DNA of 64,000 nt, taken from NCBI GenBank assembly GCA_965216755.1, contig CBDCGL010000011.1, forward strand, positions 3,072,001 to 3,136,000, written 5' to 3'. The position numbers and the translations under genes are program-made. This document shows, in pieces, positions 28,501-55,259 of this stretch. The number at the start of each line of letters is the position of its first letter. The stretch's first letter is position 1. Origin of the DNA: Alphaproteobacteria bacterium. Its GTDB lineage: Bacteria > Pseudomonadota > Alphaproteobacteria > UBA7887. Under the pieces are notes generated by a model. The model was given only the letters and a program-made list of their open reading frames with translations, was not told the origin of the DNA and did no database searches.

Positions 28501-28516
28501 GCACCTTTCTCTAATT

Positions 28517-28600
28517 CGGTGACAGTTTACTAAATACACCAAATATTGTATGCTGCAGTAATAATATACGAAATATAGTGTATTTAGTAAACTGTCACCG
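28517..28600. repeat. 84-bp palindromic element, copy 1
   Basis: CGGTGACAGTTTACTAAATA + 44 nt + TATTTAGTAAACTGTCACCG, flanked by AATT on both sides. Confidence 0.95.
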
Positions 28601-28611
28601 AATTCGTAAAC

Positions 28612-28920
28612 TCAATTATCATAGCCGAAAAGCCAGCGCATGGTGCCGTGATGGATATTGCGCACCGAATGTACTGCGCGGCGGGGAATGAATATTTCGT
28701 CACCCGGTTCGGCCACTACCGTGTCGTCGTCCACCGTCAGCTGCAAGCGGCCATCCACGACCGTCACCAACTCGTTGGTCTGGTGAACAAAATCCAGCCA
28801 GGCCTGACCCGGCGGATCGGTGAACATGTGGCACGAGTAGCCGCGCGCGCCCCATGCATCGGCGACCGCGCTTTGGTCGACCGGCGGCGCAAACACGCTC
28901 CGCGTGAGCAGCTTTGACAT
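28612..28920 (-). CDS. cupin domain protein
   Basis: WLDFVHQTNELVTVVDG...PGDEIFIPRRAVHSVRN cupin motifs. Confidence 0.85.
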   Translation of the reverse strand: MSKLLTRSVFAPPVDQSAVADAWGARGYSCHMFTDPPGQAWLDFVHQTNELVTVVDGRLQLTVDDDTVVAEPGDEIFIPRRAVHSVRNIHHGTMRWLFGYDN

Positions 28921-29029
28921 ATGTGTTTCCCAGCCTTGATGGTTTGCCGCGATCATGTGCCATCATACGCGTCGTTTGGCCCGTTGGTCATCACGAGTCG
29001 CAAACCGAAGAAATCGAGGGGAAGCCGCC

Positions 29030-30622
29030 ATGGCCGTGCGCCGCTTGCGTTTTTGGGGCTGGGGATATGAAGACGAACCAATCGACGCGGCCGAGGCGGC
29101 ACGCGTCGTCCAACATGTGCAACGGCGCCTGGCCGCACCTGATCTTGAGGAAGACCCGGCGCCACGCCTAGAGGATATCGAATTGTCGGCGCCGCGCTTA
29201 TCGCCACCGGCGAGCTTGCGCGACATCTGCGACACGGCACCGATCGAACGGGTCAGCCATACCTATGGCAAATCATTCCCCGACTATGTGCGAACGCTGT
29301 CGCGCGACTTCTCGGTCGCGCCGGACGTGGTCGCCTATCCACGTCATGAAGCCGATATTGTCGACCTGCTGGCGTGGGCCAGCGACACCCATGCGGCCGT
29401 GATCCCCTTCGGCGCCGGGTCGTCGGTGGTCGGCGGCGTCGAAGCCGCCGTTGGCGACGGTTATCGCGGCGTTATCACGATTGACTTGCGCCAGCTGGAC
29501 CAGGTTCTCGAAGTCGACGAAACCTCGCGCGCGGCGCGCATTCAGGGCGGCGTGCTGGGCCCGCATATGGATGCTCAGCTCAAGCCGCATGGCTTTTCCA
29601 TGCGCCATTTCCCGCAATCCTATCAATTCTCGACCTTGGGCGGCTGGATCGCGACGCGGTCGGGTGGTCATTACGCCAGTCTGTACACCCATATTGACGA
29701 CTTCGTCGAATCGCTACGCGTGGTCACGCCGGCGGGCGTCATCGAAAGCCGGCGCCTGCCGGGATCCGGCGCCGGGCCGAGCCCAGACCGTTTCTTCATT
29801 GGCTCCGAGGGCACTTTGGGCGTTATTACCGAAGCGTGGATGCGGGTGCAGAACCGACCGACGCACAAGGCCGCGGCGTCGATGTGGTTCTATGAATATC
29901 AACAAGCGTCGCGCGCCGTCCGGGCGATTGCCCAGGCCGGGCTTTATCCATCCAATTGCCGGTTGATTGATGCCGACGAAACCGCCATGACCCTGGCCGG
30001 CGATGGCAGCCGCCACCTGTTGGTGTTGGGCTTCGAATCGGGCGACCACCCAGTCGACGCGTGGATGGCACGCGCCATCGAATGTTGCCAGGATTTCGGC
30101 GGCGTCCGCGACGACTCCGAAGCGGCCGGCCAGTCCACGGGCGCCGGCGGTTGGCGCACCGCGTTCATCCGCGCGCCTTTCTATCGCAGCCACCTGATCG
30201 CCCGCGGCATCATTCACGACACGTTCGAGACGTCGATTCCGTGGGATCATTTCCCGGAATTCCATGCCCGTGTGAAAACCGCCACGGCTCAAGCCATCCA
30301 TGACGTGACCGGACGCGACGGCACCGTGACCTGCCGCTTTACCCATGTCTATCCTGATGGTCCGGCACCCTATTTCACGTTTCATGCGGTTGGCAAAAAG
30401 GGTGCTCTTCTCGAGCAATGGCGGGACCTGAAGCAGATCGCCTCGGATATACTATTGAAAGAGGGTGGCACGATTACCCATCATCATGCGGTCGGCCGCG
30501 ACCACCGACCCTGGTATGATCAGCAAAGACCGGACTTGTTCGCCGACGCCGTCCAAGCCGCCAAAACCAAGCTTGATCCCAAGGGTGTTCTCAACCCGGG
30601 CGTTTTGATCGATCCGGCTTAA
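29030..30622 (+). CDS. FAD-binding oxidoreductase, alkyl-DHAP-synthase-like (VAO/PCMH family)
   Basis: FWGWG, PFGAGSSVVGG, RHFPQSYQFSTLGGWIATRSGG, GSEGTLG, THHHAVGRDH and DPKGVLNPG. Confidence 0.88.
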   Translation: MAVRRLRFWGWGYEDEPIDAAEAARVVQHVQRRLAAPDLEEDPAPRLEDIELSAPRLSPPASLRDICDTAPIERVSHTYGKSFPDYVRTLSRDFSVAPDVVAYPRHEADIVDLLAWASDTHAAVIPFGAGSSVVGGVEAAVGDGYRGVITIDLRQLDQVLEVDETSRAARIQGGVLGPHMDAQLKPHGFSMRHFPQSYQFSTLGGWIATRSGGHYASLYTHIDDFVESLRVVTPAGVIESRRLPGSGAGPSPDRFFIGSEGTLGVITEAWMRVQNRPTHKAAASMWFYEYQQASRAVRAIAQAGLYPSNCRLIDADETAMTLAGDGSRHLLVLGFESGDHPVDAWMARAIECCQDFGGVRDDSEAAGQSTGAGGWRTAFIRAPFYRSHLIARGIIHDTFETSIPWDHFPEFHARVKTATAQAIHDVTGRDGTVTCRFTHVYPDGPAPYFTFHAVGKKGALLEQWRDLKQIASDILLKEGGTITHHHAVGRDHRPWYDQQRPDLFADAVQAAKTKLDPKGVLNPGVLIDPA

Positions 30623-30641
30623 CGCGAAAGGGAGATACATC

Positions 30642-31415
30642 GTGGCACAATCAGCCGTTCGCCGTTCTGCCGTCAGCACCATGAGCGATGCTGAATGGGA
30701 TACCCGCGTCGCCTTGGCCGCCACCTATCGGGTGTTCGCCGAAATGGGCATGGACGATTTGATCTACACCCACATTTCGGCGCGTCTGCCCGACGCACCG
30801 GAGCACTTCCTTCTGAACCCATTCGGCCTGATGTTTGAGGAAGTGACGGCGTCGAACTTGGTCAAGGTCGATCTGGAGGGCACACCGGTAGACCCGGATT
30901 CGGCGCCCGTCAATCGCGCCGGCTTCGTGATCCACAGTGCCTTCCACGCCGGATGCCATCGGGCCAATTGCGTGATTCATCTGCATTCGGAAGCGGGCTG
31001 CGCCGTAGCGGCGCAAAAGGATGGCTTGCTACCCTTATCGCAATATTACTTTTTCAGCGGTGGCGGCGTCGCCTATCACGCCTATGAGGGGCTGGCGCTG
31101 GACGATGATGAAAAGGCGCGGCTTGTCGACGATTTGGGTGATAAGAACTGGATGGTGCTGCGCAACCATGGCCTGTTGACTGTCGGCCACACAGTCGCCG
31201 CGGCGTTCTTCCATATGTACAATTTGGAACGCGCCTGTCGGGTCCAGGTGGCCGCCCGCGGCGGTGGCGCCGCGATCGAACTGCCGGCCAAAACGGTTCA
31301 GGAGAAGACCCAGGCCCAGCGGCCGGTCAGTCTAGACCTTGGCGAATGGGGCCAACGGGAGTTGGCGGCCTGGATGCGCAAGTTGGACCGCGCCGGCAGC
31401 GACTACCGTCAATAG
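30642..31415 (+). CDS. class II aldolase/adducin family protein
   Basis: DLIYTHISAR, FLLNPFGLMFEEVTASNL, IHSAFH, CVIHLHS and LRNHGLL. Confidence 0.92.
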   Translation: MAQSAVRRSAVSTMSDAEWDTRVALAATYRVFAEMGMDDLIYTHISARLPDAPEHFLLNPFGLMFEEVTASNLVKVDLEGTPVDPDSAPVNRAGFVIHSAFHAGCHRANCVIHLHSEAGCAVAAQKDGLLPLSQYYFFSGGGVAYHAYEGLALDDDEKARLVDDLGDKNWMVLRNHGLLTVGHTVAAAFFHMYNLERACRVQVAARGGGAAIELPAKTVQEKTQAQRPVSLDLGEWGQRELAAWMRKLDRAGSDYRQ

Positions 31416-31421
31416 TGAATT

Positions 31422-31505
31422 CGGTGACAGTTTACTAAATACGCCATATCTAGTGTATGCACTAGGCATACCGCAATATGTAGCGTATTTAGTAAACTGT
31501 CACCG
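31422..31505. repeat. 84-bp palindromic element, copy 2
   Basis: Same 20-bp arms as copy 1 with a divergent 44-nt interior. Confidence 0.95.
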
Positions 31506-31511
31506 TAAGCA

Positions 31512-32096
31512 TTAATGCGTCGGGACGCTCCAGCTGACGGCCAGTTGCTTGGCTGCGTTGAGTTGCGCTTCGTTGAGCTTGCGCTGGATAAAGGGCAGAT
31601 TCTCTTGCGCACGTGCATGACCCTGGGTCGCCGCTAGGGTCAGCCAGGCGTGAGCGGTGACCAGGTCGCGGCTGACTCCTTGGCCATTGTAATACATGAA
31701 GCCGAGCCGATTCTGCGCCTCGGCATAGCCTTGCGTGGCCGCGTCACGGCAATAGCCGGCGGCCTTTGCATAGTCCTTTTGCACGCCATCGCCATTGCCG
31801 TGGCGAAAACACATGACGTATTGGGCCGGCGGGTGATTCATTTGCGCGGCCGATTGATACAGCTTTAACGCGACCGCCACGTCGGCTGGGACGCCAAGGC
31901 CATTTTCGTACATCACACCAAGATTGTAAGCCGCCGCGCCACTGCCGGCGTTCGCAGCTGCTTCAAAGGCCACGCGCGCGCTTGCATAGTCGCGCTGTTT
32001 GAACGCGGCGACACCCGCCGCATTGTCTGCCCAAACCGGCGCCGCCAAGATGGTGACGAAAACAACCGAAAGTGCCAACAGCTTCATGGGCCGCAT
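31512..32096 (-). CDS. secreted Sel1-repeat protein
   Basis: Signal peptide and three Sel1 repeats (AAYNLGVMYENGLGV..D; AQY......GDGV.KD; AQNRLGFMYYNGQGV..D). Confidence 0.9.
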   Translation of the reverse strand: MRPMKLLALSVVFVTILAAPVWADNAAGVAAFKQRDYASARVAFEAAANAGSGAAAYNLGVMYENGLGVPADVAVALKLYQSAAQMNHPPAQYVMCFRHGNGDGVQKDYAKAAGYCRDAATQGYAEAQNRLGFMYYNGQGVSRDLVTAHAWLTLAATQGHARAQENLPFIQRKLNEAQLNAAKQLAVSWSVPTH

Positions 32097-32217
32097 CCCG
32101 TGCTCATTTCGACCGTGACAATTGTGGCACGAATGGGGCGGCGGGACTATGGCCGTCGCTACACTTTTGGCTCAAAGAATGCCTGAAAACCGCCAAAAAA
32201 TGGCAAGGTTCTTGCCG

Positions 32218-33186
32218 TCATGAACTTGCGAGCGGCGCCCCGCTTTGTACGCTGTTGGTGGCAAATGCCACCTCGGGACCGGTTAAGTCTAGGATTGTAA
32301 AAGGAAATTGCGCGGGCCAGCGGCGCGCATAGGCGCAGGCGAGATCGGCATAGGCCGCCGCCAAGGCCATTTCGGCCAGTTTGCGGTCACGCGTGGGTGC
32401 CACCTTAAGCGGTGCTTCGATTGTGGTGACAAACCGGCCGTCGGCCGCGCGAACGGTAAATACAGGCAGTAATGCCGCGCCTGTGGCCAACGCCAGGCCA
32501 GGCGCGCCGGCGGCGATTCGCAGGCCGCCGTTCAAGAACGGCACGCTGTGCGCCCGCTGGCCGCGGCCCGCCACAGTGAGGGAGACAACGCCGTTGGCGC
32601 GTAGGTGGCCAGCGAGCTGACGCAAGGCGGCAGCTGAGCCAGACCGGCCAATGACCGCGCGCCGCGCCACATAGCGGCCTTCAATGCGCGTCGAAATCCA
32701 GTTGAACAGGGTGATCCCCACACGGCTGCGGCCAAACGCCCCATGTTCAAAGCGGCTCAAATGCACAACAGATAAACCGGCGCGATGCAGCGCGATCTTG
32801 CTGACCAAATCGCTGTGCGCCATAGGCGTCACCCACAGCACGACGCCGGCGCCGGCCTGCAGCGCCCGTTTCACATGCTCCAGCCCGACCAAATCAGTCG
32901 CCGGGCGCCAACCGCCCGGGCGATAACAGCGAAGCAGCTCAAACCGCGCCAAATGGGCATGGGTCAAATGTTCGGTGAACAGGGCGTCGCGGTCGTCGAT
33001 ACCGAGCAAAAGGCCCATCCGGCGTGCCCGCAAACCGGCGCGCGCCGGTCGCAGCTTATGCGCCAATCGGGCCAGGCGGCCGGCGGCATTCATCCAGGCG
33101 CGTTGCGGCAGCAGCCAAGACATGAGCGCCACCGCCGGCACATAGGCGAATAAATAAATGTCGCGCCATCCGACCAGCGCTGGCAT
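32218..33186 (-). CDS. LpxL/LPLAT-like acyltransferase family protein
   Basis: GLEHV..AL..G.GV, VPFLNG....AGAPGLALATGAALLPV and WPAQF. The catalytic HxxxxD/E motif is not clear. Confidence 0.6.
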   Translation of the reverse strand: MPALVGWRDIYLFAYVPAVALMSWLLPQRAWMNAAGRLARLAHKLRPARAGLRARRMGLLLGIDDRDALFTEHLTHAHLARFELLRCYRPGGWRPATDLVGLEHVKRALQAGAGVVLWVTPMAHSDLVSKIALHRAGLSVVHLSRFEHGAFGRSRVGITLFNWISTRIEGRYVARRAVIGRSGSAAALRQLAGHLRANGVVSLTVAGRGQRAHSVPFLNGGLRIAAGAPGLALATGAALLPVFTVRAADGRFVTTIEAPLKVAPTRDRKLAEMALAAAYADLACAYARRWPAQFPFTILDLTGPEVAFATNSVQSGAPLASS

Positions 33187-33275
33187 CGCGCACCATTGTC
33201 GCTATGGATCCGAAGGGTGAACTCAACCAATAGGCCCGTTATGGTTAAGAATTCGCTGGCATGGAGGAAAGTTGG

Positions 33276-33485
33276 ATGGGCGACCGTCTGTTGGCGATCG
33301 GCCTGATCGGCAGCATTGTCACGGCGTTGTGCTGTTTTACGCCGATATTGGTGATGATCTTGGGCGCGCTGGGGCTATCGGCTTTGGCGGCGGGGCTGGA
33401 CAGCGTGTTATTGCCGTTGCTGGGCGTTTTTCTGGCGATCACGCTCTATGCGTTGTGGCGCCGCCCCGGGATCAAACGGGGCTAG
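33276..33485 (+). CDS. merF: mercury transport protein MerF
   Basis: LLAIGLIGSIVTALCCFTPILVMILGALGLSAL..GLDSVLLPLLGVFLAITLYALWRR. SD GGAGG. Confidence 0.85.
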   Translation: MGDRLLAIGLIGSIVTALCCFTPILVMILGALGLSALAAGLDSVLLPLLGVFLAITLYALWRRPGIKRG

Positions 33486-35178
33486 AGGCGACCGCGCCGC
33501 CGAACTGCAGCACCGCGTCCGCCGACAAGGCACGCACCGCCAAGGGATGTACGCGCCCACGGATTTCAACCTCATGGGATTGGGCGTCGTCGACCGTGAT
33601 GCCGCCGTGGCGAACAACGTCATCAGACAGAACCACTTGCGCCTGCAACGTCTTGGTCATTTCCTCCAGGCGGCTGGCGGTATTGACCACATCACCGACA
33701 ACCGTGATGCCGCGCACGCCGCGAAACCCCATTTCACCGACAATGACCGGCCCCACATGGATGCCGATGCCGATTTTGAGCGGCACGTCGAGCTCATCGC
33801 GCAAAGAGTCGTTGAGCTGTTCCAGGCGCGCGGTCATCGAACGCGCCGCGCCAACCGCGTTGCGGCATCCCTGTTCGACGTCACCATCAATACCGAACAG
33901 TGCCATCAGCCCATCGCCGACAAATTCATTGATCACGCCGCCGGCGCTTTCGATCGCTTCCGCCATCGTCACCCGGAACCGGTTGAGCACAAAAACCACG
34001 TCATAGGGCAGGCGCGACTCGGAAAAGCGCGTGAAGCCACGTAGGTCGGCAAATAGGATGGCCACCGTCCGCTCTTCGCTGTTTTGCCGAAGCGCACGCT
34101 GATACGCGTCGGCGACGGTCGCTGTCGGCGGCAGCAGGGGCGACAGCGCCAGATCCGCCGTCGGCCGGATCTGACATGCCAGGCGCACGGACGAGGGCGC
34201 CGCGATCCGCCGCAACACGGTGAGCTCTTGCCCCTCTGGTGGCGGCAGGCGGTCCGCGCCATTTTCGATCTGCACCCGACATGTGGAACAGCGCCCGCGT
34301 CCACCGCACACGCTGGCATGGCGGATGCCCGCGGCGCGCAACGCCTCGAGCGCGGTCATGCCCGGTGCCACATCGACCACGCGCTGGCCGCGATAGCGCA
34401 TGCGCGGGCCCCGGTTGCGGCCGCGCCAATAACCGCGCAAGGCGCGGGCGGCCAATACCGCAACCAATATCGCACCGATCACATACCACCCAACCACGCG
34501 GCTATCCTGCATCCAGGCGGCCATGTCAGCTTCAAATCGGGCCTGTTCCATGGTCGCCAAAACCCAATCGGTGTCCTCCGCCAAAGCCATGACCCGGGTG
34601 CCGCCGGACACGTAGCCGGCCAAGGCCGCCACCGGCACGATAATGGCAAGCGCGAAGGCCACCAGTTGCACGCGCGCATACCACCTTTTCAGCCGCAACC
34701 AGCCATGCAGGCCGATACAGCCATGGATCCAAACCACAAACACGGCCACCGTCTGGACGATGCCGAAAGTGGGCGCGATCACCCACAAAAAGGTTAGTTC
34801 CAGATCGTAGTTCATGGCCACGTCATAGCGCTCGACAAGGCCGCGCGTCGCCAACACATGGCCGATCAAAATCAGCGGGATGCTCAAGCCAAGCACCGTT
34901 TGCACAAGCTGCCAAAGGGGCAGCCGCAGGGTCCGCCGGCGATAAACGGACCATAGTGCGGTGGCCATGTGGGTCAGCGCCGCGCCGGTGAGAAGGATCG
35001 TCCCCGGCACCGTGTGCCATGGCGCGACCGATACGGCGAGCCCGGCGTTCATGGTCGCCAAGCCGAAAATGCCAAGGCTGTGGTTAACCAGGTGGCCGAA
35101 CACGAAGACGAACAGAATCACCCCGCTGCCAAGACGCAAACGGGCGACCACCAAGCGTGCTGTAGGACCGTCAAACAT
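33472..35178 (-). CDS. class III adenylate/guanylate cyclase with a His-rich membrane domain and a 2Fe-2S ferredoxin domain (CyaC-type)
   Basis: TM His residues (GHLVNH, LTHM, IGHV, IHGCIGLH), HASVCGGRGRCSTC...RLACQ, FADLRGFT, GDGLMALF and GDVVNTASRLE. Confidence 0.9.
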   Translation of the reverse strand: MFDGPTARLVVARLRLGSGVILFVFVFGHLVNHSLGIFGLATMNAGLAVSVAPWHTVPGTILLTGAALTHMATALWSVYRRRTLRLPLWQLVQTVLGLSIPLILIGHVLATRGLVERYDVAMNYDLELTFLWVIAPTFGIVQTVAVFVVWIHGCIGLHGWLRLKRWYARVQLVAFALAIIVPVAALAGYVSGGTRVMALAEDTDWVLATMEQARFEADMAAWMQDSRVVGWYVIGAILVAVLAARALRGYWRGRNRGPRMRYRGQRVVDVAPGMTALEALRAAGIRHASVCGGRGRCSTCRVQIENGADRLPPPEGQELTVLRRIAAPSSVRLACQIRPTADLALSPLLPPTATVADAYQRALRQNSEERTVAILFADLRGFTRFSESRLPYDVVFVLNRFRVTMAEAIESAGGVINEFVGDGLMALFGIDGDVEQGCRNAVGAARSMTARLEQLNDSLRDELDVPLKIGIGIHVGPVIVGEMGFRGVRGITVVGDVVNTASRLEEMTKTLQAQVVLSDDVVRHGGITVDDAQSHEVEIRGRVHPLAVRALSADAVLQFGGAVASSPV

Positions 35179-35587
35179 CGGTAAGCGGACAGTATCAGAC
35201 CGGCCCGCGCGCGCCGCGATCACACGTTTGTGAGCAAATCGACTGCCCCAAAACGGCGCTCGTTTTACCCCATGGCGCATCCTCATTCATTCTTCACGCC
35301 AATACGTTAGGCAGGTGCGATGCCGCGCACCGATGGGCTTCGGGCGCGCATCCGACCAGATCGTCGAAAGCTTCACCCTGAGTGTCCAACAAAGCTTGCG
35401 CCAACAAGGTTACTTGCAAATGCGACTTAATCGCGATAGCAACAAATTTGGGTGGCAGCACTTTTTTGTGGGGGAAGAAACGTGGCGCAGATCGCCATTG
35501 TACCGAGCAGCTCGGCGTCAACGATGGGGTCTGTCGGCGAAGGGGCAAGCGTCAATATCGGCCGGACACGATCCGTTGCGCCGTAGC

Positions 35588-37300: not shown

Positions 37301-37301
37301 C

Positions 37302-38108: not shown

Positions 38109-38326
38109 GTGGCCCTCCTGTGCCTGTGCGCCCCGCCAGTATGCCGGACATGGCGTCGATTTGACAGGCGATGGCTGAGGGCCCCGGCCTGGTCGGCGGG
38201 ACCAAAGTCGCTATCTTCATTCGAAGACCCACGCAACGACCCGCTGAGGATTCCGCTGTGGTAACAGTTTGCCGAACCGGCGCCGCGCCCGACCCGACCA
38301 CGCCGCAGTCGACCCATGATGACCGA

Positions 38327-39142: not shown

Positions 39143-39156
39143 TTATTTTTCGATTT

Positions 39157-39240
39157 CGGTGACAGTTTACTAAATATACTGTATATTGCGGCCAGATCAG
39201 AGAAATCGCTAAATCTTGTGTATTTAGTAAACTGTCACCG
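39157..39240. repeat. 84-bp palindromic element, copy 3
   Basis: Same arms as the other copies. Separated from the tRNA-Thr CCA end by 9 nt. Confidence 0.95.
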
Positions 39241-39249
39241 AGATATAAA

Positions 39250-39325
39250 TGGTGCCGCCTGTGTGACTCGAACACACGACCCCAGCATTACGAATGCTGT
39301 GCTCTACCAACTGAGCTAAGGCGGC
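39250..39325 (-). tRNA. tRNA-Thr(CGT)
   Basis: Reverse complement GCCGCCTTAGCTCAGTTGGTAGAGCACAGCATTCGTAATGCTGGGGTCGTGTGTTCGAGTCACACAGGCGGCACCA. Forms a cloverleaf with anticodon CGT and encoded CCA. Confidence 0.97.
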
Positions 39326-46408: not shown

Positions 46409-46461
46409 TGCTTCAAGACCTCAAACCGCCGCGGCACAGGGCGTGCCGCGACACAAACTGA

Positions 46462-46568
46462 CTAGATCAATCCTTGTTCAAACAAGGTCGTTTGAACGAA
46501 GCCAAATTGATCAATATCAAATAGATAGAGCATATCATGCGACCGAATATGAGAGTGAAATGCTCTAG
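46462..46568. repeat. CTAG-bounded intergenic repeat (CIR/Bru-RS-like), full 107-bp copy
   Basis: CTAG at both ends, left gttcaaac/gtttgaac hairpin, central tatcaaatagata and right tagagcat/atgctcta stem. Homologous to the 18092 copy. Confidence 0.75.
46507..46520. promoter_or_regulatory. FNR/FixK-box consensus inside the repeat
   Basis: TTGAT-CAAT-ATCAA, about 100 nt upstream of the COG4223 start. Confidence 0.45.
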
Positions 46569-47284
46569 CCATCGGAACGTGCGGCATCGACAAGCGCGCG
46601 CATGGCGTCGAATGTCGGCTCCGTTGTGACCGCGACCCGCCGCCAAGGGACCGCCTTCACTGATATGGCCACGGGCTCACTCAAACAAAAGGCCGCGCAG
46701 TGGGCCAATTGGTGTGCGCATTCGACAGTTTCGGCCAAGCGCACAAAAATCTTGGCGGTTCGGGCTGAAAAGAACAGCACGCCATCGATCTCGTGTTTAG
46801 CCAAGGCCGTTTGCACCTCGGTGGATAGGCTTTCGGCCTGCACGGCATGGTAAAGGACGTGCCGAATCACCTGAAAGCCGTACGCGCCGAGTTCGGCCAC
46901 CAGATCAACAGCGATATGGTCGCCGCTGACATGGACCAACGGCGCGCCCGCCGGATCGCAGCGCGCCGCCACCAACCGCACCAGATGGGCGCCGGCGCCG
47001 GCGGCGGATTCGACATCGGCAAAACCGCGATCGCGCGCCGTCTCGGCCGACGCATCGCCCACCGCAAAAATCGGTATGTCGCGCGCGGTGGTCAAATCCG
47101 CGAGCCGCGCGGCACCATAGGCGCTGGTCACCAACACCGCCTGCGCATTTGCCAATTCCGGTACCGCGACCGCGCGCGGCAGAATTCGGAGCATCGGTTC
47201 GATCAACACGTCGATGCCGATCCGCTCGAATTCCCGCGCCGACGCCAAGGACTGTTCTCTTGGCCGAGTCAATAGCACGCGCAT
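46565..47284 (-). CDS. hemD: uroporphyrinogen-III synthase
   Basis: MRVLLTRP, TSAYG, FAVGDASA, FFSARTA and CLSEPVA. Confidence 0.92.
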   Translation of the reverse strand: MRVLLTRPREQSLASAREFERIGIDVLIEPMLRILPRAVAVPELANAQAVLVTSAYGAARLADLTTARDIPIFAVGDASAETARDRGFADVESAAGAGAHLVRLVAARCDPAGAPLVHVSGDHIAVDLVAELGAYGFQVIRHVLYHAVQAESLSTEVQTALAKHEIDGVLFFSARTAKIFVRLAETVECAHQLAHCAAFCLSEPVAISVKAVPWRRVAVTTEPTFDAMRALVDAARSDG

Positions 47285-47287
47285 GGC

Positions 47288-48232
47288 TCACTGCGCCTGC
47301 AAGAAATCGGGGCCCGCACGATCCAACAAATGCTCGGCCAGGGCCGTGCCAATCAGCGTCGCGTCCGCCGACCGGCCATGGCTCGTGTCTTCGTGCACCA
47401 CACGGCCATCGGGCGCGGCGATCAAACCGCGCAGGTTAAGACCACCGCTGCCATCGACGACCGCCAGGCCGGCGATCGGCGTGCGACACGATCCGTCAAG
47501 CCGCGCCAGAAAGGCACGCTCAGTAGCCACACAGGTCGCGGTGGCCGGATCGTTCAGTTGTGCCAAAAGATCGCGTAACTGATGGTCACGCGCGCGGCAC
47601 TCAATGCCGATGGCGCCCTGAGCGATCGCCGGCAAGATTTGACTGGGCTCGAGAACCGCGGTGGCGGCGTTGGCCTGACCCAAGCGACGCAAACCGGCGT
47701 GCGCCAACAAAGTGGCATCGACGACACCGGAACGAACCTTTTCCATGCGCGTGCCGACATTGCCGCGTAGCGGCGTGATGGTCAGATCCGGCCGCCGCCA
47801 AAGCAATTGTGCGGCGCGACGCAAAGATGACGTGCCGACCACCGCGCCCGGCGCCAGCGACGCCAAACCGCCCGAACCGCCCGAACCGCGCCCGATTAGC
47901 GCATCGCGCGGATCCTCGCGCGCCAACATGCAGTCGATGACCAATCCATCAGGCAACCAGGTCGGCACGTCTTTCATCGAATGCACCGCCAGATCAATGC
48001 GATTTTCCAGCAGGGCATCGTCAATTTCCTTGGTGAACAGCCCTTTGCCGCCGATCTCCGCCAAAGGGCGATCGACGAAGCGGTCGCCGCTGGTGCGAAT
48101 CACGACGATTTCCACGCCGCCCGCCCCGCCCAGATCCGGATTGGCGGCAATCAGACGCCGACGCACTTCATCGGCCTGAACGCGCGCCAAGGGGCTGCCG
48201 CGTGTCCCGATTCGAATTTGTCCCAAAGTCAT
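47288..48232 (-). CDS. hemC: hydroxymethylbilane synthase
   Basis: [41 protein letters not shown] and LDGSCRTPI. Confidence 0.97.
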
Positions 48233-48387
48233 GCGTCGCTCGCCCCACCGAACACGTGACAGGGGCCAATGGCGCGCGATCAGCCAACCGCGTACACTCG
48301 CCGCAACCGGTCGCCATCGCCGGCGAACGCCATGGAGTCACGAAAGATGCGCATGTATATCACCAAATCGGTCGGCGGCATTCGCCA

Positions 48388-49443
48388 ATGATGGTCCTAG
48401 GAATTGAGTCCAGCTGCGATGAAACCGCTGCCGCACTGGTCGATGGCCAACGTCGCATTGTCGCCAACATCGTGCGCGCGCAGCTTGATGATCACCGCCC
48501 CTTTGGCGGTGTCGTGCCGGAAGTGGCGGCACGCGCCCACGTGCTGTGTCTGGACCACCTGATTCGCCAGGCGATGGAGCTGGGCCAGATCGATTTCAAC
48601 GATTTGGACGCGGTCGCGGCAACCGCCGGGCCCGGACTGATCGGCGGCCTGATGGTCGGTTTGACAACCGCCAAAGCAATCGCCGCCGTCCATGATCTGC
48701 CGCTGATCGCCGTGAATCATCTAGAGGCGCACGCCCTGACGCCGCGGTTGACCGACGATTTGGCGTTCCCCTACTTGCTGCTTTTGATGTCGGGCGGCCA
48801 TTGCCAGCTGCTGATCATCGAATCGGTGGGGCAATATCGGCGCTTGGGGACCACGATCGACGACGCGGTCGGGGAAGCCTTTGACAAGGCGGCGCGGATG
48901 ATGGGCTTGGGTTATCCGGGCGGACCCGCGATCGAGCAGGCGGCCGCCGATGGTGATCCCGACCGGTTTCGCTTGCCGCGGCCCTTGCACGGCCGGCCGG
49001 GATGCGATTTTTCGTTTTCCGGCCTCAAGACCGCATTGCGCCAGCAGATCGCGGCACTGAACGGGGATCAGCCGCAGCCGAATGACATCGCCGACCTGTG
49101 CGCGAGTTTTCAAGCGACCGTCGCCGATGTCTTGATCGATCGTTTGCGCCACGCCGTGGCGGTGTTTCACGCCCACCACGGCGCCGGCGGCGCGCTGGTC
49201 ATCGCCGGCGGTGTCGCCGCCAACAGCTATTTGCGCGCACGCTTGGCGGACGCCGCTGAGGCGTTGGCCATGCACCTGGTGGCGCCGCCGGTGGCACTCT
49301 GTACCGACAACGCGGCCATGGTCGCCTGGGCGGGTCTGGAGCGGTGGCGCCATGGCTTAAACGACGGCTTGGATTTCCCGGCCCGCGCCCGCTGGCCCTT
49401 GGACCCGACCGCGGTCGGAATCGGCGGCGGCGTCAGGGCATGA
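48388..49443 (+). CDS. tsaD: tRNA N6-threonylcarbamoyltransferase
   Basis: [43 protein letters not shown] and CTDNAAM. Confidence 0.96.
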
Positions 49444-50456
49444 TGGCAGGACCAACCGCACCGCGATATGGCCGCGTCGGCATTGTTGGGGCGGGTGCCT
49501 GGGGCACGGCGCTGGCCATGGTGGCGGCGAAGAACGGCTGTCAGGTCACATTGTGGGGCCGCGATCCAGCGCTCGCCGCGGCGATCAACCAACAGCGTCG
49601 CAACCCACGATATCTAAGCGATGCGCGGTTGCCGACCACCATCGACGCCGTGAGCGATCTCGCGGCCGTTGGCGCCTGCGACGCGCTTTTGCTGGTGGTG
49701 CCGGCACAGGCCGTCCGCGCGACCTGCCAGACGCTTCGACCGGCCGTCACCAACGGTGTTTCGATCACGGTTTGCGCAAAGGGCATCGAGCGCGGCAGCG
49801 GCGCCTTGATCAACGAAGTTGTCGCCGATGTCGCACCAAACCATCCCATCGCGGTTCTGTCCGGACCAACCTTTGCGACCGAAGTTGCGCGAGGCCTGCC
49901 AACGGCGGTGACTCTGGCCTGCGCCGATCCCGATATCGGTGCGCGATGGGTGGCGACGCTGGGTTTGCCCACATTTCGTCCTTACTACACCGCCGATGTG
50001 GTCGGCACGGCGTTGGCCGGTGCGGTCAAGAATGTACTGGCCATCGCCTGCGGGATCGCCATCGGTCGCGCACTCGGCGACAATGCGCGGGCGGCGCTGA
50101 TCACGCGCGGGCTGGCGGAAATGGCCCGCTTGAACGAGGCGCTCGGCGGCGATCGCGAAACCATGATGGGATTGGCCGGCCTGGGTGACTTGGTGTTGAC
50201 CAGCTCCAGCCGGCAATCGCGCAATTTCGCCTATGGTCTTGCGGTGGGCGAGCGCGGCAAAGCGGACGACCCGGCCGGCGGGCCATTGGTTGAAGGCAGG
50301 GCAACCGCGGTATCGGTGAACGAACGGGCCCGTCAGGCCCGCGTCGACATGCCGATCTGCAGCGCGGTCAAGGCCATCGTGCACGATGGCGCACCGGTCG
50401 ATGACACCATCGCCGCCCTGTTGGCGCGACCGTTCCGCGCCGAAGCGGCCGATTAA
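49440..50456 (+). CDS. gpsA: NAD(P)H-dependent glycerol-3-phosphate dehydrogenase
   Basis: [34 protein letters not shown] and [15 protein letters not shown]. Confidence 0.96.
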
Positions 50457-50462
50457 CCTCGG

Positions 50463-51305
50463 CTAGTCCCGCAACAGGTCGTTGATCGAGGTCTTGCTGC
50501 GGGTCTGTTCATCGACCTGTTTGACAATCACCGCGCAATAGAGTGACGGCCCGGGCGTGCCGTCGGCCATCGGCTTGCCTGCCAGGCTGCCCGGCACAAC
50601 GACCGAATAGGCCGGCACCCGACCATATTGAATCTGCCCCGTGGCCCGATCGACGATCTTGGTCGAGGCGCCCAAATACACGCCCATCGCCAGCACCGCG
50701 CCGGTTTCGACGATGACACCTTCGGCGACCTCGCTGCGGGCGCCGATAAAGCAGTTGTCCTCAACAATCACGGGGCCCGCCTGTAGCGGTTCCAAGACAC
50801 CGCCGATACCGGCCCCGCCCGATATGTGGCAATTGGCGCCGATCTGGGCGCACGAGCCGACCGTGGCCCAGGTGTCGACCATCGTTCCCGCACCGATATG
50901 GGCGCCCAAATTGACAAAACTGGGCATCAGCACCGCCCCCGGCGCGACAAAAGCCGAGCGACGCACGATCGCCCCCGGGACGGCCCGAAATCCGGCTTCG
51001 GCAAATTCGACCGCATCCCAACCGGCAAATTTGGATGGTACCTTGTCGTACCAATGGGCGCCGCCCGGCGCGCCGGCAATCGGAATCATGTCTTGTAGGC
51101 GGAACGACAGCAGCACCGCCTTTTTCAACCATTGATGCACCGTCCAGTTTCCATCGCGCTTCTCGGCGACACGAAATGTTCCCTGGTCGAGACCATCCAG
51201 GGCGGCATCGACCGCGTCGCGCGCGGCACCCGTTGTTTCGGGGCCGATTTGGTCGCGGTCTTGCCACGCAGCTTCGATCGCGGCTTCGATATCAGCACGG
51301 TCCAT
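50463..51305 (-). CDS. dapD: tetrahydrodipicolinate N-succinyltransferase
   Basis: [33 protein letters not shown] and [10 protein letters not shown]. Confidence 0.97.
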
Positions 51306-51352
51306 GATCCACACTCTATTGCTTGGGCGCCAAGGCGCGCCGATCGGGCCCG

Positions 51353-52048
51353 CTAAACTAGAGCCGCCAGCCAGCCGGTCAAGTCATCGGTGACATAGTC
51401 GACATGATCATGATTCACGTGCGGTTCCGAAACAGGCGCATGATCCCGGGCCGGCCGCACCCAAACCGTGGTCATCCCAAGCGCGGCGGCGGCGACCAGG
51501 TTGGCGGCGATGTCCTCAAACATCATCGCTCGCGGCCCCTCGATGGCGTGGCGGTCGACAAATCGGCGATAGGTGCGGTGGTCGGGCTTGGGCAGATAGT
51601 CGGCCGCGACGATATCGAAAACAGCGTCGAAATGATGGCCAACGCCGAGGCGATCCATGACCCGTTCGGCATGGTCGGTGGAGCCATTGGTAAAAACATA
51701 CTTCCGGCCCTGAAGTCGGCCGAGGATGTGGTCAAGGTCGGGCGACGGCGCCACCGGGGCCAGGTCGATATCATGGACGAAGTCCAGATAATCGTCCGGA
51801 TTGACGCCGTGATGCAGCATCAAGCCCCGCAAGGTCGTGCCGTGAGCGCGATAATAGTGCTTTTGCAGGCGAAAAGCGTCATCGGCGGCAAGCCCCAATC
51901 GACCACGGATAAATGCGCGCATGCGCTGGTCAATCTGGGCGAACAGGTCGCATTCAGCCGGGTAGAGAGTGTTGTCGAGGTCGAAGACCCAACTCTCGAC
52001 CGCCGCCGCAGATGGGGTCACAGCCTTGTTGCTCGACGGTTTGGTCAT
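51353..52048 (-). CDS. pyrimidine 5'-nucleotidase (HAD superfamily)
   Basis: [26 protein letters not shown] and MFED..NL. Confidence 0.92.
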
Positions 52049-52170
52049 AGATCCATTCTAGCGTTTTGGTTTCGAAGTGCGAAGTCGCTGTGGCCCAGAG
52101 CAACCGTCCGGGCACCCTGGCGAACGCCCATGTTTAGGTAATCTTCATCGATTTTACCGACTGTTAAGGC

Positions 52171-53919
52171 GTGATGACGAACCCCCGAATGGCAGGCCTG
52201 CTGAACGGCGCGAGCGCGCGCACCAGTTATCGGGTCGATCCAACCGTTGTACTGAAATCGTTTCCCGGTCCGGTCCTGATCCTGGAGCCGGACGGAGATG
52301 TCGTCGCCGCGAACGATCATGCCGCCGACTTGCTGGCGGCCCTGCGCAACGGCGCCTTGGACGGGCTGCTCTTGGCGTGCCGCGAGATCGCCGAGGCTGA
52401 CAAGCCGCTGATCGACACCATTGAATTGCCGGCCGCGCTGGGCGGCGGCGCCTTCGACGTAACCGTCCTGCCGTTGGTCAATGGCGACGGCGTGGTTGGC
52501 GGTTTGTTGTTGCTGGCCCGAAACGTCACGCTCGACCGTAATCTGCGTCGCGCCCTGGTCGAATCGCGACAGCGCTATAAGGATATTGTCGAGTGTTCGG
52601 GCGACTTCGCCTGGGAACTCGATGCCGAGGGCCGCTTTGCCTTCGTGTCGCCGCGCGGCGCATTGGGCCATCAGCCCGAAGAACTGATCGGCCGTCATCC
52701 GCATGAATTTGATAGCGAGCCGGCCTCGGATTCGACCGAAACACCGTTTGTGGCGCACCAGGCCGTGGAACGCGAGACGATGTGGTTCCGCGCTGCCAAC
52801 GGCCACGTGGCATGTTTGGAAGTCTCGTCGGTGCCTCTGATCGACCGGCACGGACACTGGGCGGGGGCACGTGGCATCTGCCGCAATGTGACCCGCGAGC
52901 GCACCCAGCAAGAGGCACTACGCCGGGCGCGCGAACGCGACCGGGCCATGGCCAAGATTATCCGCGACGTACGCAAGGAAATCGATCTGGCTACCGTTTT
53001 ACGCGAAGCAACCCGCGCCACCGGCCTGGCGCTTGATGGCGATGCTTGTTGGGTCTTCCTGGCCGATCGCGCCCCGGATCATCCGGCGGCACGCTGGCCC
53101 GCCGATGCGCCGGCACCGCCGGCGGCCGCGTGCGCCATGATCGAGAAGCTTGTGTCGGCGAGTCCCAATGATTCGGCGGTCACGGTGGAAACACTCTTAC
53201 TTGCCGCCAGTTTCGACGCGCAGCGCACGACCGCGGTGATTGCCATTGACCGGGACAACGGTGATGATGGCCATCGCCGATGGAATAGCGACGAACGGCT
53301 CTTGTTGACCGGCGTCGCCAATCAATTGGGCGTGGCCATCGAACAGGCGACGATCCACGAACAGCTACAAACCCTGTCGCGCACGGACGGCCTAACCGGC
53401 GTGCTGAACCGACGCGCCTTTCTGGACGAGACCGGACGCCGATTGCAACATGCCCGCCGCCACAAGCGGCCGGCGACGTTGTTGTTTATTGACTTGAACA
53501 ACTTTAAGGCGATCAACGACATTCTCGGCCATAAGCGTGGCGATGAGGCAATCGTCGCGGTCGCCGAACTGATCCAAAAGACCAGTCGGGCGAGCGATAT
53601 CCTGGCGCGGGTTGGTGGTGACGAGTTCGCCTTGTGGCTGGAGGAAACCGGCGCCGACGGGGCCCAAGTCAAGGTGCGCGCCTTGGTCAACGCCAGCGCC
53701 GAACTGACGCGGTTGTCGGCGTCGGACGATAAGCCGTTCGGGATGTCGATCGGCATCGCCGTGCTCGATCCCGAACATGACGAGACATTGGAATCCCTGA
53801 TGGATCGCGCCGACATGGCCATGTACGCGGCGAAACGTGATCGCACGCAGACGCGCTTCGCCGAGCTGCAAGTCGGCGAAACCCGCCCGCAAATAGAAAC
53901 TGATCGGGTGGACTCATGA
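52171..53919 (+). CDS. PAS-PAS-GAF diguanylate cyclase
   Basis: PAS (DFAWELDAEGRFAFVS), GAF, DGLTGVLNRR, DLNNFKAIND..GH..GD and RASD-x5-GGDEF. Confidence 0.92.
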   Translation: MMTNPRMAGLLNGASARTSYRVDPTVVLKSFPGPVLILEPDGDVVAANDHAADLLAALRNGALDGLLLACREIAEADKPLIDTIELPAALGGGAFDVTVLPLVNGDGVVGGLLLLARNVTLDRNLRRALVESRQRYKDIVECSGDFAWELDAEGRFAFVSPRGALGHQPEELIGRHPHEFDSEPASDSTETPFVAHQAVERETMWFRAANGHVACLEVSSVPLIDRHGHWAGARGICRNVTRERTQQEALRRARERDRAMAKIIRDVRKEIDLATVLREATRATGLALDGDACWVFLADRAPDHPAARWPADAPAPPAAACAMIEKLVSASPNDSAVTVETLLLAASFDAQRTTAVIAIDRDNGDDGHRRWNSDERLLLTGVANQLGVAIEQATIHEQLQTLSRTDGLTGVLNRRAFLDETGRRLQHARRHKRPATLLFIDLNNFKAINDILGHKRGDEAIVAVAELIQKTSRASDILARVGGDEFALWLEETGADGAQVKVRALVNASAELTRLSASDDKPFGMSIGIAVLDPEHDETLESLMDRADMAMYAAKRDRTQTRFAELQVGETRPQIETDRVDS

Positions 53920-55157
53920 AGCGTTTCGCGTCGCGCGTGCGCGCTTTTTTTGAGCGCGAGGTGGACTATGACAAATCGAAAAAAGTGGCCCGCCATGGCG
54001 ATACCTCGCAACGCCGCGACATTGCCGCGCGCCAGGACGTAGCGCCAGAGATTCTCTACTACCTGGCTGAGGATCCCGACCCAGAGGTCCGGCGCCTGAT
54101 CGCAGCCAATTCAGCGACGCCGCCCCATGCCGATGTGTTGCTGACACGCGATATCAACGATGATGTGCGCGTCGACTTGGCCCGCAAAATCGGCCGCCTG
54201 GCCCCGGATCTGCCCCTTGAGGCGCGCGACGCCCTGCAGTCGCTGACGTATGACGCGTTGGAGGCGCTGGCCAGCGATACGCTTCCCCGTGTGCGGCAAA
54301 TCATTGCCGAGGAAATTAAAAAGCTCGACAATTTGCCGCGCAGTTTGACGGTTATGCTGGCCCGCGATGTCGAACTGATGGTCGCCGCGCCAATCTTGGA
54401 ATACTCGCCATTGCTGCGCGACGAAGACCTGCTTGAAATCATCAACAGTGAGCCGATCCAAGGTGCGCTCAAGGCGATATCCGGGCGTCACGGGTTGAGC
54501 GAAACGGTGAGTGCGGCGATCGGCAACAGTGACGATGAAATGGCGATCGCGGCGTTGCTGGCCAACCAAAGCGCACAGATCAGCGAAGAGACCCTGGACT
54601 GCTTGATCGATCGTGCGCACGATCACGAATCGTGGCACGAACCGCTGGTGTTGCGACCGCATCTGTCTGAGCGCGCCTTCAAACACATTTCGCGATTCGT
54701 CACCGCATCGTTGCTTGCGGTTTTGGAAGAACGTCATGGCTTGGCTGCCGGCCTGTCGCAGGAGATGGCGCGCCGCGTCGATGAACGGCTTGAAACGCCT
54801 GGTGCCAACGACAGCCCGCAAGAGCAAGCCGCGGCCCTCGACGCCGCGGGCCAGCTCACCGAACAGCTTATTCTGGAACGACTGGCCTTGCCGGGCGAGA
54901 AAGAGTTCGTGATTCATGCGTTGGCGCGCCGCGCCGCGTTAGACCCGCAGATGGTGCAAAGAGTGATGGATACCGCGAGCGCCAAATCGGTCACGGCGCT
55001 GACCTGGAAGGCGGGCCTAAGTATGCGCGCAGCCATGGATTTCCAGCGTAAGCTGGCGCACATCGATTCGAAATCCTTGCTGTATGCCCGCGACGGGGTC
55101 GATTACCCGATGGACGAAGAAGAACTGAACTGGCGGTTGGATATGATCGCCGGTTGA
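53916..55157 (+). CDS. DUF2336 family protein
   Basis: PEILYYLA.D...VRR.IA.N, LARDVE..VAAPILEYSPLL.DEDL and LTWKAGLSMR. ATGA overlap with the cyclase. Confidence 0.85.
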   Translation: MKRFASRVRAFFEREVDYDKSKKVARHGDTSQRRDIAARQDVAPEILYYLAEDPDPEVRRLIAANSATPPHADVLLTRDINDDVRVDLARKIGRLAPDLPLEARDALQSLTYDALEALASDTLPRVRQIIAEEIKKLDNLPRSLTVMLARDVELMVAAPILEYSPLLRDEDLLEIINSEPIQGALKAISGRHGLSETVSAAIGNSDDEMAIAALLANQSAQISEETLDCLIDRAHDHESWHEPLVLRPHLSERAFKHISRFVTASLLAVLEERHGLAAGLSQEMARRVDERLETPGANDSPQEQAAALDAAGQLTEQLILERLALPGEKEFVIHALARRAALDPQMVQRVMDTASAKSVTALTWKAGLSMRAAMDFQRKLAHIDSKSLLYARDGVDYPMDEEELNWRLDMIAG

Positions 55158-55175
55158 GACACCCGCTATTTGTTT

Positions 55176-55259
55176 CGGTGACAGTTTACTAAATACACCA
55201 AATATTGTGTAATCTTCGAATAGCGCACAACATTTGGTGTATTTAGTAAACTGTCACCG
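55176..55259. repeat. 84-bp palindromic element, copy 4
   Basis: Same arms as the other copies. The most self-complementary copy. Confidence 0.95.

Follow-up and report, generated by a model that had tools for sequence, protein, structure and literature searches.

Background

REP, BIME and REPIN repeats are among the commonest non-coding elements of bacteria, and their function is debated. To our knowledge, just one well-known example exists of such a repeat whose linker incorporates the site of a host protein, namely IHF in E. coli BIME-1. The REPINs of Pseudomonas, reportedly described by Bertels and Rainey in 2011, are grouped with the TIR repeat families as close systems. Tandem NrdR operators at ribonucleotide reductase (RNR) promoters were reportedly set out by Rodionov and Gelfand in 2005.

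E. coli BIME-1, also called RIP or RIB, is a REP and an inverted REP around an L linker, and the RAYT or TnpA-REP gene is found in a REPtron (PMC3333891). In the same account BIME linkers are variable, except for the BIME-1 L linker with its IHF site. TIRtrons, or TIRYT, as presented by Di Nocera et al. in 2013, pair a RAYT-like gene with long inverted repeats that are unrelated to GTAG REPs (PMC3733652).

Tandem NrdR operators are described for S. coelicolor nrdRJ and nrdAB, and for E. coli nrdHIEF, nrdDG and nrdAB (PMC9110341, PMC12176259). Known NrdR boxes have conserved GC pairs 9 bp apart and a box offset of 31, and NrdR, as a tetramer, puts a kink of about 90 degrees into each box (PMC9110341). 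Boxes are separated by linkers of 15-16 bp, a distance in which some variation is tolerated by E. coli NrdR (PMC12176259). Among the matches listed from the open-access literature, titles and abstracts yielded no link of NrdR with REPINs, repetitive extragenic palindromes or repeat elements. Nor was a host-regulator operator inside TIR/REPIN-type repeats found described in the portions of that literature consulted.

The window discussed here is the whole stretch of 64,000 nucleotides that was analysed. It contains four hairpin repeats, each with two NrdR-box-like 16-mers in tandem. An earlier note on this DNA had recognised the 16-mers, and missed the element as the repeat of a RAYT/TIRYT-type Y1 transposase. 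Our explanation, which we hold to be probable but by some way not certain, is that such a repeat had its linker turned, in this lineage only, into a selected tandem operator for NrdR.

Copies in the window

Copy 1 (28515..28602) is made up of a 22-nt arm, a 44-nt linker and a 22-nt inverted arm, with a hairpin of -44.4 kcal/mol. It lies between two convergent genes, one hexapeptide-transferase-like (stop 28500) and one for a cupin (stop 28612), and its 16-mers are at 28536..28551 and 28566..28581. Copy 2 (31420..31507), with 16-mers at 31441..31456 and 31471..31486, again separates convergent genes, for a class II aldolase (stop 31415) and a Sel1-repeat protein (stop 31512). Copy 3 (39155..39242) has a MIOX-like gene (stop 39142) on one side and, on the other, tRNA-Thr(CGT) (39250-39325, minus strand), whose 3' end faces it. 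Its 16-mers are at 39176..39191, where position 6 is G and not A, and at 39206..39221. Copy 4 (55174..55261), with 16-mers at 55195..55210 and 55225..55240, has as convergent neighbours a DUF2336 gene (stop 55157) and an amino-acid-kinase gene (stop 55269). Elements and boxes are given without strand, and the offset between the two boxes is 30 in all four.

All eight 16-mers, and the four central 14-mers between them, are exactly as the earlier note quoted them. The pattern C-N-A-N-A-T-N-T-N-G, required twice at an offset of 30 with at most one mismatch, occurs five times in the window, against 0.04 times expected (100 shuffles). Four of these five are the elements. The neighbouring genes are unrelated housekeeping genes and a tRNA, and there is no RNR or replication promoter among them.

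No Rfam family matched the elements at E <= 1 between positions 28000 and 56000 of the window. In this span the search hit only the tRNA and, by chance, a miRNA (E = 0.39) and Plastid-ycf2 (E = 0.084), the latter on the other strand from the tRNA.

The repeat family and its transposase

The four copies are members of a larger family, of about 61 elements (61 arm pairs), dispersed outside genes across the bacterial genome. In each, a less conserved linker separates two inverted arms of 22-28 nt that are nearly invariant, and 51 left and 53 right arms match the 18-mer core exactly. The linker measures 44 nt in 39 copies and 45 nt in 14. It consists of the two 16-mers at its ends and 14-15 unconstrained nt; nothing is left over. 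When the arms pair, the hairpins have energies from -43 to -58 kcal/mol, and shuffling gives z-scores from -8 to -14. Their outermost 6 nt covary in inverted fashion; over the last five positions the pairing is 0.83-0.94. Four orphan-looking arms come from elements in which the partner arm has decayed, and two arm matches with 3 mismatches sit in a duplicated region that we take, from its sequence, to be putatively rRNA.

The chassis is a REPIN/BIME-like hairpin repeat. Neither of the tetranucleotide tags GTAG and CGTC, which mark the foot of REPs, is present in the arm sequence. A classical DDE-transposon MITE was considered and rejected because no target-site duplication accompanies the terminal inverted repeats; direct repeats of at least 3 nt were absent at 7 assumed boundaries in 52 copies. 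Short-read contigs from four sequencing runs break within elements, and none of these contigs bridges an empty site.

The cognate gene encodes a Y1 (HUH) tyrosine transposase of RAYT/TIRYT-like type. It is present in a single copy at C11:3428737-3429408, outside the window, and is the only Y1_Tnp match in the genome (PF01797; 33.3 bits, cut-off 23). The closest NCBIfam model, REP-associated tyrosine transposase NF047646, gives 68.1 bits, which is under its cut-off of 80, so the protein does not count as a RAYT equivalog. Two element copies flank the gene, one 31 nt upstream and one 20 nt downstream. A single-copy Y1 gene flanked by its own repeats is the arrangement of REP, BIME and REPIN systems. 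A RAYT-like gene with long inverted non-GTAG repeats, and with copies elsewhere in the genome that lack the gene, is that of a TIRtron or TIRYT, where gene-less doublets are likewise described as moderately abundant in the same genome. Unlike the TIRtrons described there, however, the class with boxed linkers has here expanded to at least 53 copies, whereas copies with a plain, box-less linker number 1-8 per genome.

Other genomes have homologues of the transposase at 59-68% identity, and the same arms, or similar ones, lie no more than about 40 nt from these genes. In other Proteobacteria, the same arms accompany related transposases, and no NrdR boxes are present. Linker length is fixed there also, at 37-39 nt in genome G106 and at 43 nt in a betaproteobacterial MAG. 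The arm 18-mer, allowing one mismatch, was found in none of the 40 relatives searched, 22 of which are of the same family. Since the same arms exist elsewhere without boxes, the boxes are a lineage-specific addition that stands outside the common mobility machinery of the family. And since these arms and related transposases work elsewhere without them, the boxes are dispensable for the mobility of the family.

By analogy, the closest known counterpart would be E. coli BIME-1. As far as the published description of BIME-1 goes, both have two inverted conserved palindromic arms and otherwise highly variable linkers, both are scattered over the 3' ends of genes, and in each case the repeats flank a cognate Y1 transposase gene that is present once. 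Both linkers hold a site for a host protein that bends DNA sharply: IHF there and, to go by the motif, NrdR here. The protein would differ in kind, however, NrdR being a nucleotide-sensing repressor that sits as a tetramer on two boxes, and the site here fills the whole linker. The arms also differ from those described for BIME-1 in lacking a GTAG tag, and in pairing with each other instead of forming small hairpins themselves.

Conservation of the linker

Among 104 boxes from 52 distinct genomic copies, C4 is kept in 103, A6 in 94, A8 in 95, T9 in 98, T11 in 82 and G13 in 98. This skeleton runs through the 53 copies with a 44- or 45-nt linker, while the interleaved positions vary freely. Non-modal bases fill 54 of 624 cells (8.7%) at the six constrained positions versus 223 of 416 (54%) at four interleaved ones (Fisher p = 8e-59). 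The earlier note had named loss of the pattern in a larger alignment as grounds for dropping the idea; the pattern persists. The central 14-15 nt are unrelated between copies, with identity at or near random. This had been claimed for the window and is true of the whole genome as well.

It could be argued that all this is a functionless relic: a master copy happened to contain an NrdR-like sequence, and its copies have diverged too little to lose it. All copies do share a common ancestral element, and to the eye subfamily traces persist in some spacers. Yet conservation differs about sixfold between neighbouring positions of the same 16-mer, the conserved positions are those of NrdR contact type, and the spacers in between are at or near random identity. 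This position-specific contrast refutes the relic unless mutation is itself position-specific, and we consider a relic very improbable. The contrast demonstrates a selective constraint on the linker, which, judging from these alignments, is kept by purifying selection as a tandem operator-like sequence. Selection at the level of the host and at that of the element are inseparable here, because the composite occurs in one lineage only.

The constraint could also be structural, with the linker part of an RNA or single-stranded DNA hairpin (a terminator, an mRNA stabiliser or a transposase substrate) and the box pattern a result of stem pairing. The strong arm hairpins and the inverted covariation of the outermost 6 nt fit this, and REP-type repeats are known as RNA elements at 3' ends, according to the account in PMC3733652. 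But pairing of left with right boxes is barely higher within the same element (466) than between different elements (447.4 +/- 9.1; permutation, z = 2.05), and pairing of the spacers is not raised at all (120 against 116.5 +/- 9.2; z = 0.38). These permutation tests reject a hairpin stem within the linker. The 104 boxes of 52 copies show no covariation within the box, there are no compensated changes at C4/G13 such as a stem would lead one to expect, and, as mentioned, Rfam has no match. The earlier note's view that the two boxes pair poorly, and that a double-stranded DNA palindrome is at stake rather than an RNA stem, therefore holds genome-wide. In the absence of left-right and within-box covariation, the constraint acts on the sequence and not on a stem. 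For the linker, the structural explanation is largely refuted, and we give it very little credence.

Match to NrdR boxes

An independent NrdR matrix was made by de novo Gibbs sampling from the nrdJ upstream regions of 27 relatives. This genome was excluded, and none of the relatives used carries the element. The motif that results is ccACaAnATnTtGTgg. Its matrix correlates with that of the element boxes at r = 0.93, with r of 0.96-1.00 per column at positions 2-6 and 8-9, and the six constrained positions are identical in both. Under the nrdJ matrix, the median element box scores 14.1 bits versus 15.7 for real sites (leave-one-out), a score of 14.1 bits being reached by 2.35e-5 of genome positions. 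Of the 57 genome matches at 16 bits or more, 40 are inside elements.

The reverse comparison gives a similar picture. A matrix built from the elements only finds 111 tandem matches in the 4.85 Mb genome, with just 6 outside elements. Of these 6, two precede an nrdJ-like gene, and another precedes dnaE by 48 nt. The check proposed earlier, of a logo from all copies against an NrdR matrix and the genome's own nrdJ boxes, has in this way also retrieved the native nrdJ operator. Strict tandem matches number 23 in this genome versus 0-7 in 40 relatives.

The regulator itself is there. The absence of nrdR would have told against the idea, but the gene is present and intact (TIGR00244, 174.8 bits against a cut-off of 124.65). 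Its Zn-ribbon aligns without gaps to E. coli NrdR 9FVR, with C3, C6, D15, R17, RRRR 26-29, C31 and C34 in register, so the DNA-reading residues are intact too. By the independent nrdJ-promoter matrix, the element boxes are statistically indistinguishable from NrdR boxes. This supports NrdR as their reader, although the binding itself, with everything downstream of it, is something we infer from the motif. The NrdR-box consensus string written out in the earlier note did not turn up verbatim in the open-access literature.

As in the RNR-promoter operators so far as these are described, the boxes are 16-bp near-palindromes with C and G 9 bp apart and an A/T centre. They share their motif with this genome's own nrdJ and dnaE promoters, and would stand about three helical turns from each other. 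On this spacing the copies are divided. Three helical turns correspond to an offset of 31-32 with a linker of 15-16 bp. The constant spacing of 30 bp that had been claimed is true of the window, but genome-wide 39 copies have an offset of 30 and 14 have one of 31. The nrdJ operators native to this genome and to the relatives examined have offsets of 31 (17 pairs), 32 (4), 33 (7) and 30 (1). An offset of 30 occurs in 1 of 41 native box pairs, which leaves the main offset of the elements 1 bp short of native operators.

Position in the genome

The second difference from the described RNR-promoter operators is location. The elements, some 55 of them, are part of a mobile hairpin repeat and are not at the promoters of RNR or replication genes. 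Of 37 copies with both neighbours called, 26 are between convergent genes and one is between divergent genes. That the copies are at gene 3' ends and not at nrd promoters had been noted for the window, and is borne out for the genome. Most predicted NrdR sites of this genome are on this evidence at gene ends, inside selfish-looking repeats. Gene 3' ends offer a repressor of initiation no obvious target.

Another protein might then read the boxes: the Y1 transposase, a factor specific to the element, or some other host regulator, the likeness to NrdR being convergent. The 30-bp offset unlike that of native operators and the positions away from promoters both suit such a reader, as does the fact that linker length is fixed in this family even without boxes (G106, the betaproteobacterial MAG). 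Against it, such boxes are missing where transposase homologues at 59-68% identity go with identical arms, the same six positions are constrained in the independent nrdJ-promoter matrix, and the element matrix picks nrdJ and dnaE promoters out of 4.85 Mb. We regard a different reader as unlikely.

It is also conceivable that NrdR does bind, but in the service of promoter control. Each element would then be a pair of inward-facing, NrdR-repressible promoters, in which each arm provides a -35-like GTGACA and the box core (nATnTn) follows 17 bp downstream. The convergent neighbours would be transcribed in antisense or, from the copy that ends 31 nt before its start, the transposase gene would be transcribed. 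In 12 kb, 6 sites resemble promoters by a consensus scan, and the three elements contain 4 of them, all GTGACA or TTTACT-17-nATATT. In native promoters the NrdR box is described as overlapping the -10 element (PMC4409342). The total of 6 is within chance, however (4.4 +/- 1.8), and the -10 test is passed by 38 of 104 boxes inward versus 23 of 104 outward, and by 5-12 of 27 native ones. The centre of the NrdR consensus is AT-rich anyway, and GTGACA belongs to arms that are identical in genomes without boxes. Promoter control strikes us as decidedly unlikely.

Possible role of the boxes

We return to the explanation that a linker became an NrdR operator. Here the arms belong to the single-copy transposase of RAYT/TIRYT kind, the gene itself being flanked by two copies, and the linker of 44-45 bp would have been turned into a lineage-specific tandem operator for the dATP/ATP-sensing repressor NrdR. 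This would place a nucleotide-dependent architectural protein between two arms, as IHF is placed in the E. coli BIME-1 linker. The roughly 55 sites at convergent gene ends would hold most of the cell's high-affinity NrdR sites, and would thus act as a sink.

More tentatively, and with less confidence than in the operator itself, NrdR may have been co-opted by the repeat family, making a dNTP-gated element and a genome-wide NrdR sink. In its dATP/ATP-loaded form, NrdR would bend the linker into a U-turn and bring the arms side by side, and the dNTP pool would thereby gate the maintenance or proliferation of the element, or the expression of its transposase. Conversely, some 55 repeat-borne operators would reset the point at which RNR and dnaE escape repression. 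The numbers, at least 53 boxed copies versus 1-8 box-less ones per genome, fit an element that proliferated more or was better retained once it had acquired boxes. Titration, architecture and mobility control are candidate roles that we infer here.

What this would add is a predicted site for a second, unrelated DNA-bending host protein in a REP-type linker, preserved by selection in some 50 copies. NrdR reports the dATP/ATP ratio. If it binds, it would be more than an RNR repressor in this organism, with most of its sites outside promoters, and this would bear on how DNA-precursor supply is coupled to titration, nucleoid architecture and transposase activity.

The family is directly usable for binding studies because it amounts to mutagenesis carried out by nature: across 104 boxes, contact-type positions alone survive. 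It includes weak members as well, which tell against the operator. At least one box scores under 8 bits in 9 of 43 exact-arm copies, and the two copies that flank the transposase gene have weak left boxes, at 6.1 and 6.6 bits.

Repeat elements in the window and the genome

A repeat search finds one repeat family in the window, with four 88-nt copies at 28515-28602, 31420-31507, 39155-39242 and 55174-55261. In each, a 44-nt interior separates a 22-nt arm from that arm's exact reverse complement. They carry the 16-mers and central 14-mers exactly as the earlier note quoted them. The tandem skeleton C-N-A-N-A-T-N-T-N-G, with a start-to-start offset of 30 and at most one mismatch, is matched 5 times in the window, where 0.04 matches would be expected; four of the five are these elements.

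All four copies lie 5-17 nt from stop codons or a tRNA end, on both sides. The third copy occupies the entire gap between a protein gene and the gene for tRNA-Thr(CGT) (39250-39325, minus strand), the 3' end of which is 8 nt away.

The source genome measures 5.0 Mb, in 11 contigs. The 18-nt core of the arm has 132 matches in it at up to 3 mismatches, and is present exactly in 51 left arms and 53 right ones. When paired, the arms yield 61 elements, not counting a 62nd pair in which a left arm already used meets a second, partial right arm. The interior is 44 nt long in 39 copies, 45 nt in 14 and of some other length (39-51 nt) in 8. Neighbouring genes were called with a GC3-filtered ORF heuristic, which found both for 37 copies: the genes on either side are convergent for 26 of these, tandem for 10 and divergent for 1.

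The arms fold into long hairpins (-43 to -58 kcal/mol), and on their outer sides the adjoining 6 nt show inverted covariation. The elements match no Rfam family.

Only one Y1_Tnp match exists in this genome, a 223-aa ORF with HUH and tyrosine regions at C11:3428737-3429408, on the contig (C11) that also holds the window (C11:3072001-3136000). It scores 33.3 bits for PF01797 and 68.1 bits for the NCBIfam model 'REP-associated tyrosine transposase', short of the cut-off of 80. Element copies flank the gene, 31 nt upstream and 20 nt downstream.

Exact arm pairs are also found in 30 metagenome stretches and in MAGs labelled Betaproteobacteria/Burkholderiaceae, Methylococcales, Alphaproteobacteria and Geminicoccaceae. 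Three of the five arm-bearing MAGs have transposase homologues at 62-65% identity. A homologue at E <= 1e-45 is encoded by 28 of 400 sampled genomes of the class. Wherever such a homologue reaches roughly 59% identity, the arms of this element, or similar ones, lie no more than about 40 nt from its gene.

The element is thus a RAYT/TIRYT-associated hairpin repeat. Its anatomy is that of REP/BIME/REPIN-type repeats, but the TIR repeat families of TIRYT genes, as described in PMC3733652, are a closer match, because the element arms lack the GTAG tag.

Selection on the linker

Statistics on the 16-mer boxes cover the 53 copies with a 44- or 45-nt interior, 52 of which are distinct, yielding 104 boxes. 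In these 53 copies each 16-mer consists of one end of the linker plus the last base of its arm. The modal bases are A1 (102 of 104), C2 (80), A3 (89), C4 (103), A6 (94), A8 (95), T9 (98), T11 (82) and G13 (98). Box positions 5, 7, 10 and 12 are nearly free, and so are the central 14-15 nt.

The earlier note had seen C4, A8, T9, T11 and G13 kept in all boxes of the window copies and A6 in 7 of 8, with the other positions varying and the central 14 nt unrelated; this pattern persists genome-wide. Non-modal cells number 54 out of 624 at positions 4, 6, 8, 9, 11 and 13, versus 223 out of 416 at the interleaved positions 5, 7, 10 and 12 (Fisher p = 8e-59). Descent from a single master copy cannot give such alternating constraint. 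The two linker 16-mers are therefore under purifying selection, on the host or on the element.

Both boxes reach at least 8 bits in 34 of 43 copies with exact arms and in 4 of 10 copies with mismatched arms, which weakly suggests joint decay of arms and boxes.

A stem formed by the linker would be another source of constraint. Pairing between the left and right box of the same element amounts to 466, versus 447.4 +/- 9.1 for boxes of different elements, and 126 of 5000 permutations reached the observed value. The spacer gives 120 versus 116.5 +/- 9.2. There is no covariation within boxes, where mirror positions pair at the frequency predicted by independence. These results speak against a stem in the linker. 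As there is no stem signal, the constraint acts on the sequence as double-stranded DNA, which is also what the earlier note had proposed.

The motif as an NrdR box

The source genome has one nrdR gene (TIGR00244, 174.8 bits) and three genes for RNR large subunits. Its NrdR aligns without gaps to that of E. coli over the Zn-ribbon, with the four cysteines, D15, R17 and RRRR 26-29 in register. These residues are DNA-binding and specificity determinants of NrdR (PMC9110341).

A matrix was made from the element boxes alone and used to scan the 4.85-Mb contig in tandem mode. Only 6 of its 111 tandem matches are outside elements. Two of them are upstream of an nrdJ-like gene, at offsets 31 and 43. 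Another, at C11:920930-920977 with an offset of 32, precedes the start of dnaE (DNA polymerase III alpha; NF004226, 1448.5 bits) by 48 nt and scores 26.4 bits with the independent matrix introduced below. The NrdR regulon of this genome probably includes the replicative polymerase.

The independent matrix comes from a palindrome-constrained Gibbs sampler, run on 27 regions of 400 nt upstream of nrdJ in relatives, with the source genome excluded. The element arm is found in 0 of 40 genomes of relatives. Of 12 seeds, the best three converged on one motif, ccACaAnATnTtGTgg; between the resulting matrix and that of the elements the correlation is r = 0.93.

On the independent matrix, element boxes have a median of 14.1 bits, versus 15.7 bits for real sites scored leave-one-out. 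Scores of at least 14.1 bits are found at only 2.35e-5 of genome positions, and 40 of the 57 positions with at least 16 bits are inside elements. The strict two-box pattern occurs 23 times in this genome versus 0-7 times per genome in the 40 relatives. By their sequence, then, the positions under selection coincide with those of the NrdR box, and the likeness that the earlier note had pointed out holds up.

That note had also put the spacing at a constant 30 bp. The offset is 30 in 39 copies, and 31 in the other 14. Box pairs upstream of nrdJ have offsets of 31 (17 pairs), 32 (4), 33 (7) and 42-43 (7), with 30, the commonest offset in the elements, seen only once. NrdR linkers are given as 15 or 16 bp in PMC12176259, which also describes E. 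coli NrdR as somewhat tolerant of distance changes in vitro.

Four NrdR boxes (C11:1949815-1949947) precede the nrdJ-like gene, at -229, -186, -143 and -112 relative to its start, so that their offsets are 43, 43 and 31. In the class I RNR promoter, near C11:1812775-1812900, there are two DnaA-box-like TTATCCACA words and just a single box, of 10 bits. Upstream of the third RNR-like gene (C11:3537079-3539472) there is no box of at least 8 bits. Further strong tandem NrdR-like pairs outside elements, at 20-25 bits summed, are found at C11:4549408, 4082660, 1718773 and 3680413; one of these four falls within a thiamine-enzyme-like ORF.

The same arms in other genomes

Among 26 distinct copies of the element in other genomes and metagenomes, with linkers of 39-49 nt, 0 have two boxes of at least 8 bits. 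Similarly, 0 of 29 loci of other genomes have a box of at least 11 bits inside an arm-flanked element. For example, genome G106 has a 68%-identical transposase and 8 copies with exact arms. Its linkers of 37-39 nt are GC-rich and mutually unrelated, and inspection by eye finds no box pattern in them. Genome G041, with 6 copies, likewise has linkers of fixed length (43 nt) that are unrelated between copies.

The 8 other-length copies in the source genome are also without boxes. Together with the box-less copies elsewhere, this means that a variable linker of fixed length is the norm for the family. A variable linker has likewise been described for E. coli BIMEs (PMC3333891). The combination of invariant arms and scrambled linker is family-wide, and simple drift does not explain it.

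The source genome differs by one linker class, constrained as a predicted NrdR operator, and the boxes are a lineage-specific addition. This class comprises 53 copies, and about 4 more in which an arm has decayed, whereas copies without boxes amount to 1-8 per genome.

Possible roles

NrdR turns DNA by about 90 degrees per box, 180 degrees overall (PMC9110341). Such a turn would set the two arms of an element side by side. The geometry would allow an NrdR-gated promoter to read inward from each arm, though this is poorly supported. The most likely consequences would be that the elements act as a sink for NrdR and that they have an architectural role, by analogy with IHF in the BIME-1 linker. 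Around 55 of the predicted operator pairs in this genome are in repeats, compared with a small number at nrdJ, dnaE and some other loci.

What would be new is a BIME-1-like design that uses a different host protein instead of IHF, namely the predicted, nucleotide-sensing NrdR. No report linking NrdR to REP, REPIN or BIME repeats was found in the open-access literature.

Flanks and duplicated copies

No target duplication of at least 3 nt accompanies the element copies. Just outside many of them, for example at C11:2738756, 2934924, 4074700 and 3333696, the outermost 8-9 nt of the arm, (A/G)TTWCGGTG, recur 1-3 times head to tail. The Y1 transposase may have left these footprints by cleaving or inserting repeatedly.

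The copies at C11:2590737 and 2590949 are 212 nt apart and identical, which points to a local duplication. Those at C11:4348612 and 4462525 lie 114 kb apart, one being the reverse complement of the other; they have 24 nt of flank in common and are therefore part of a larger inverted duplication.
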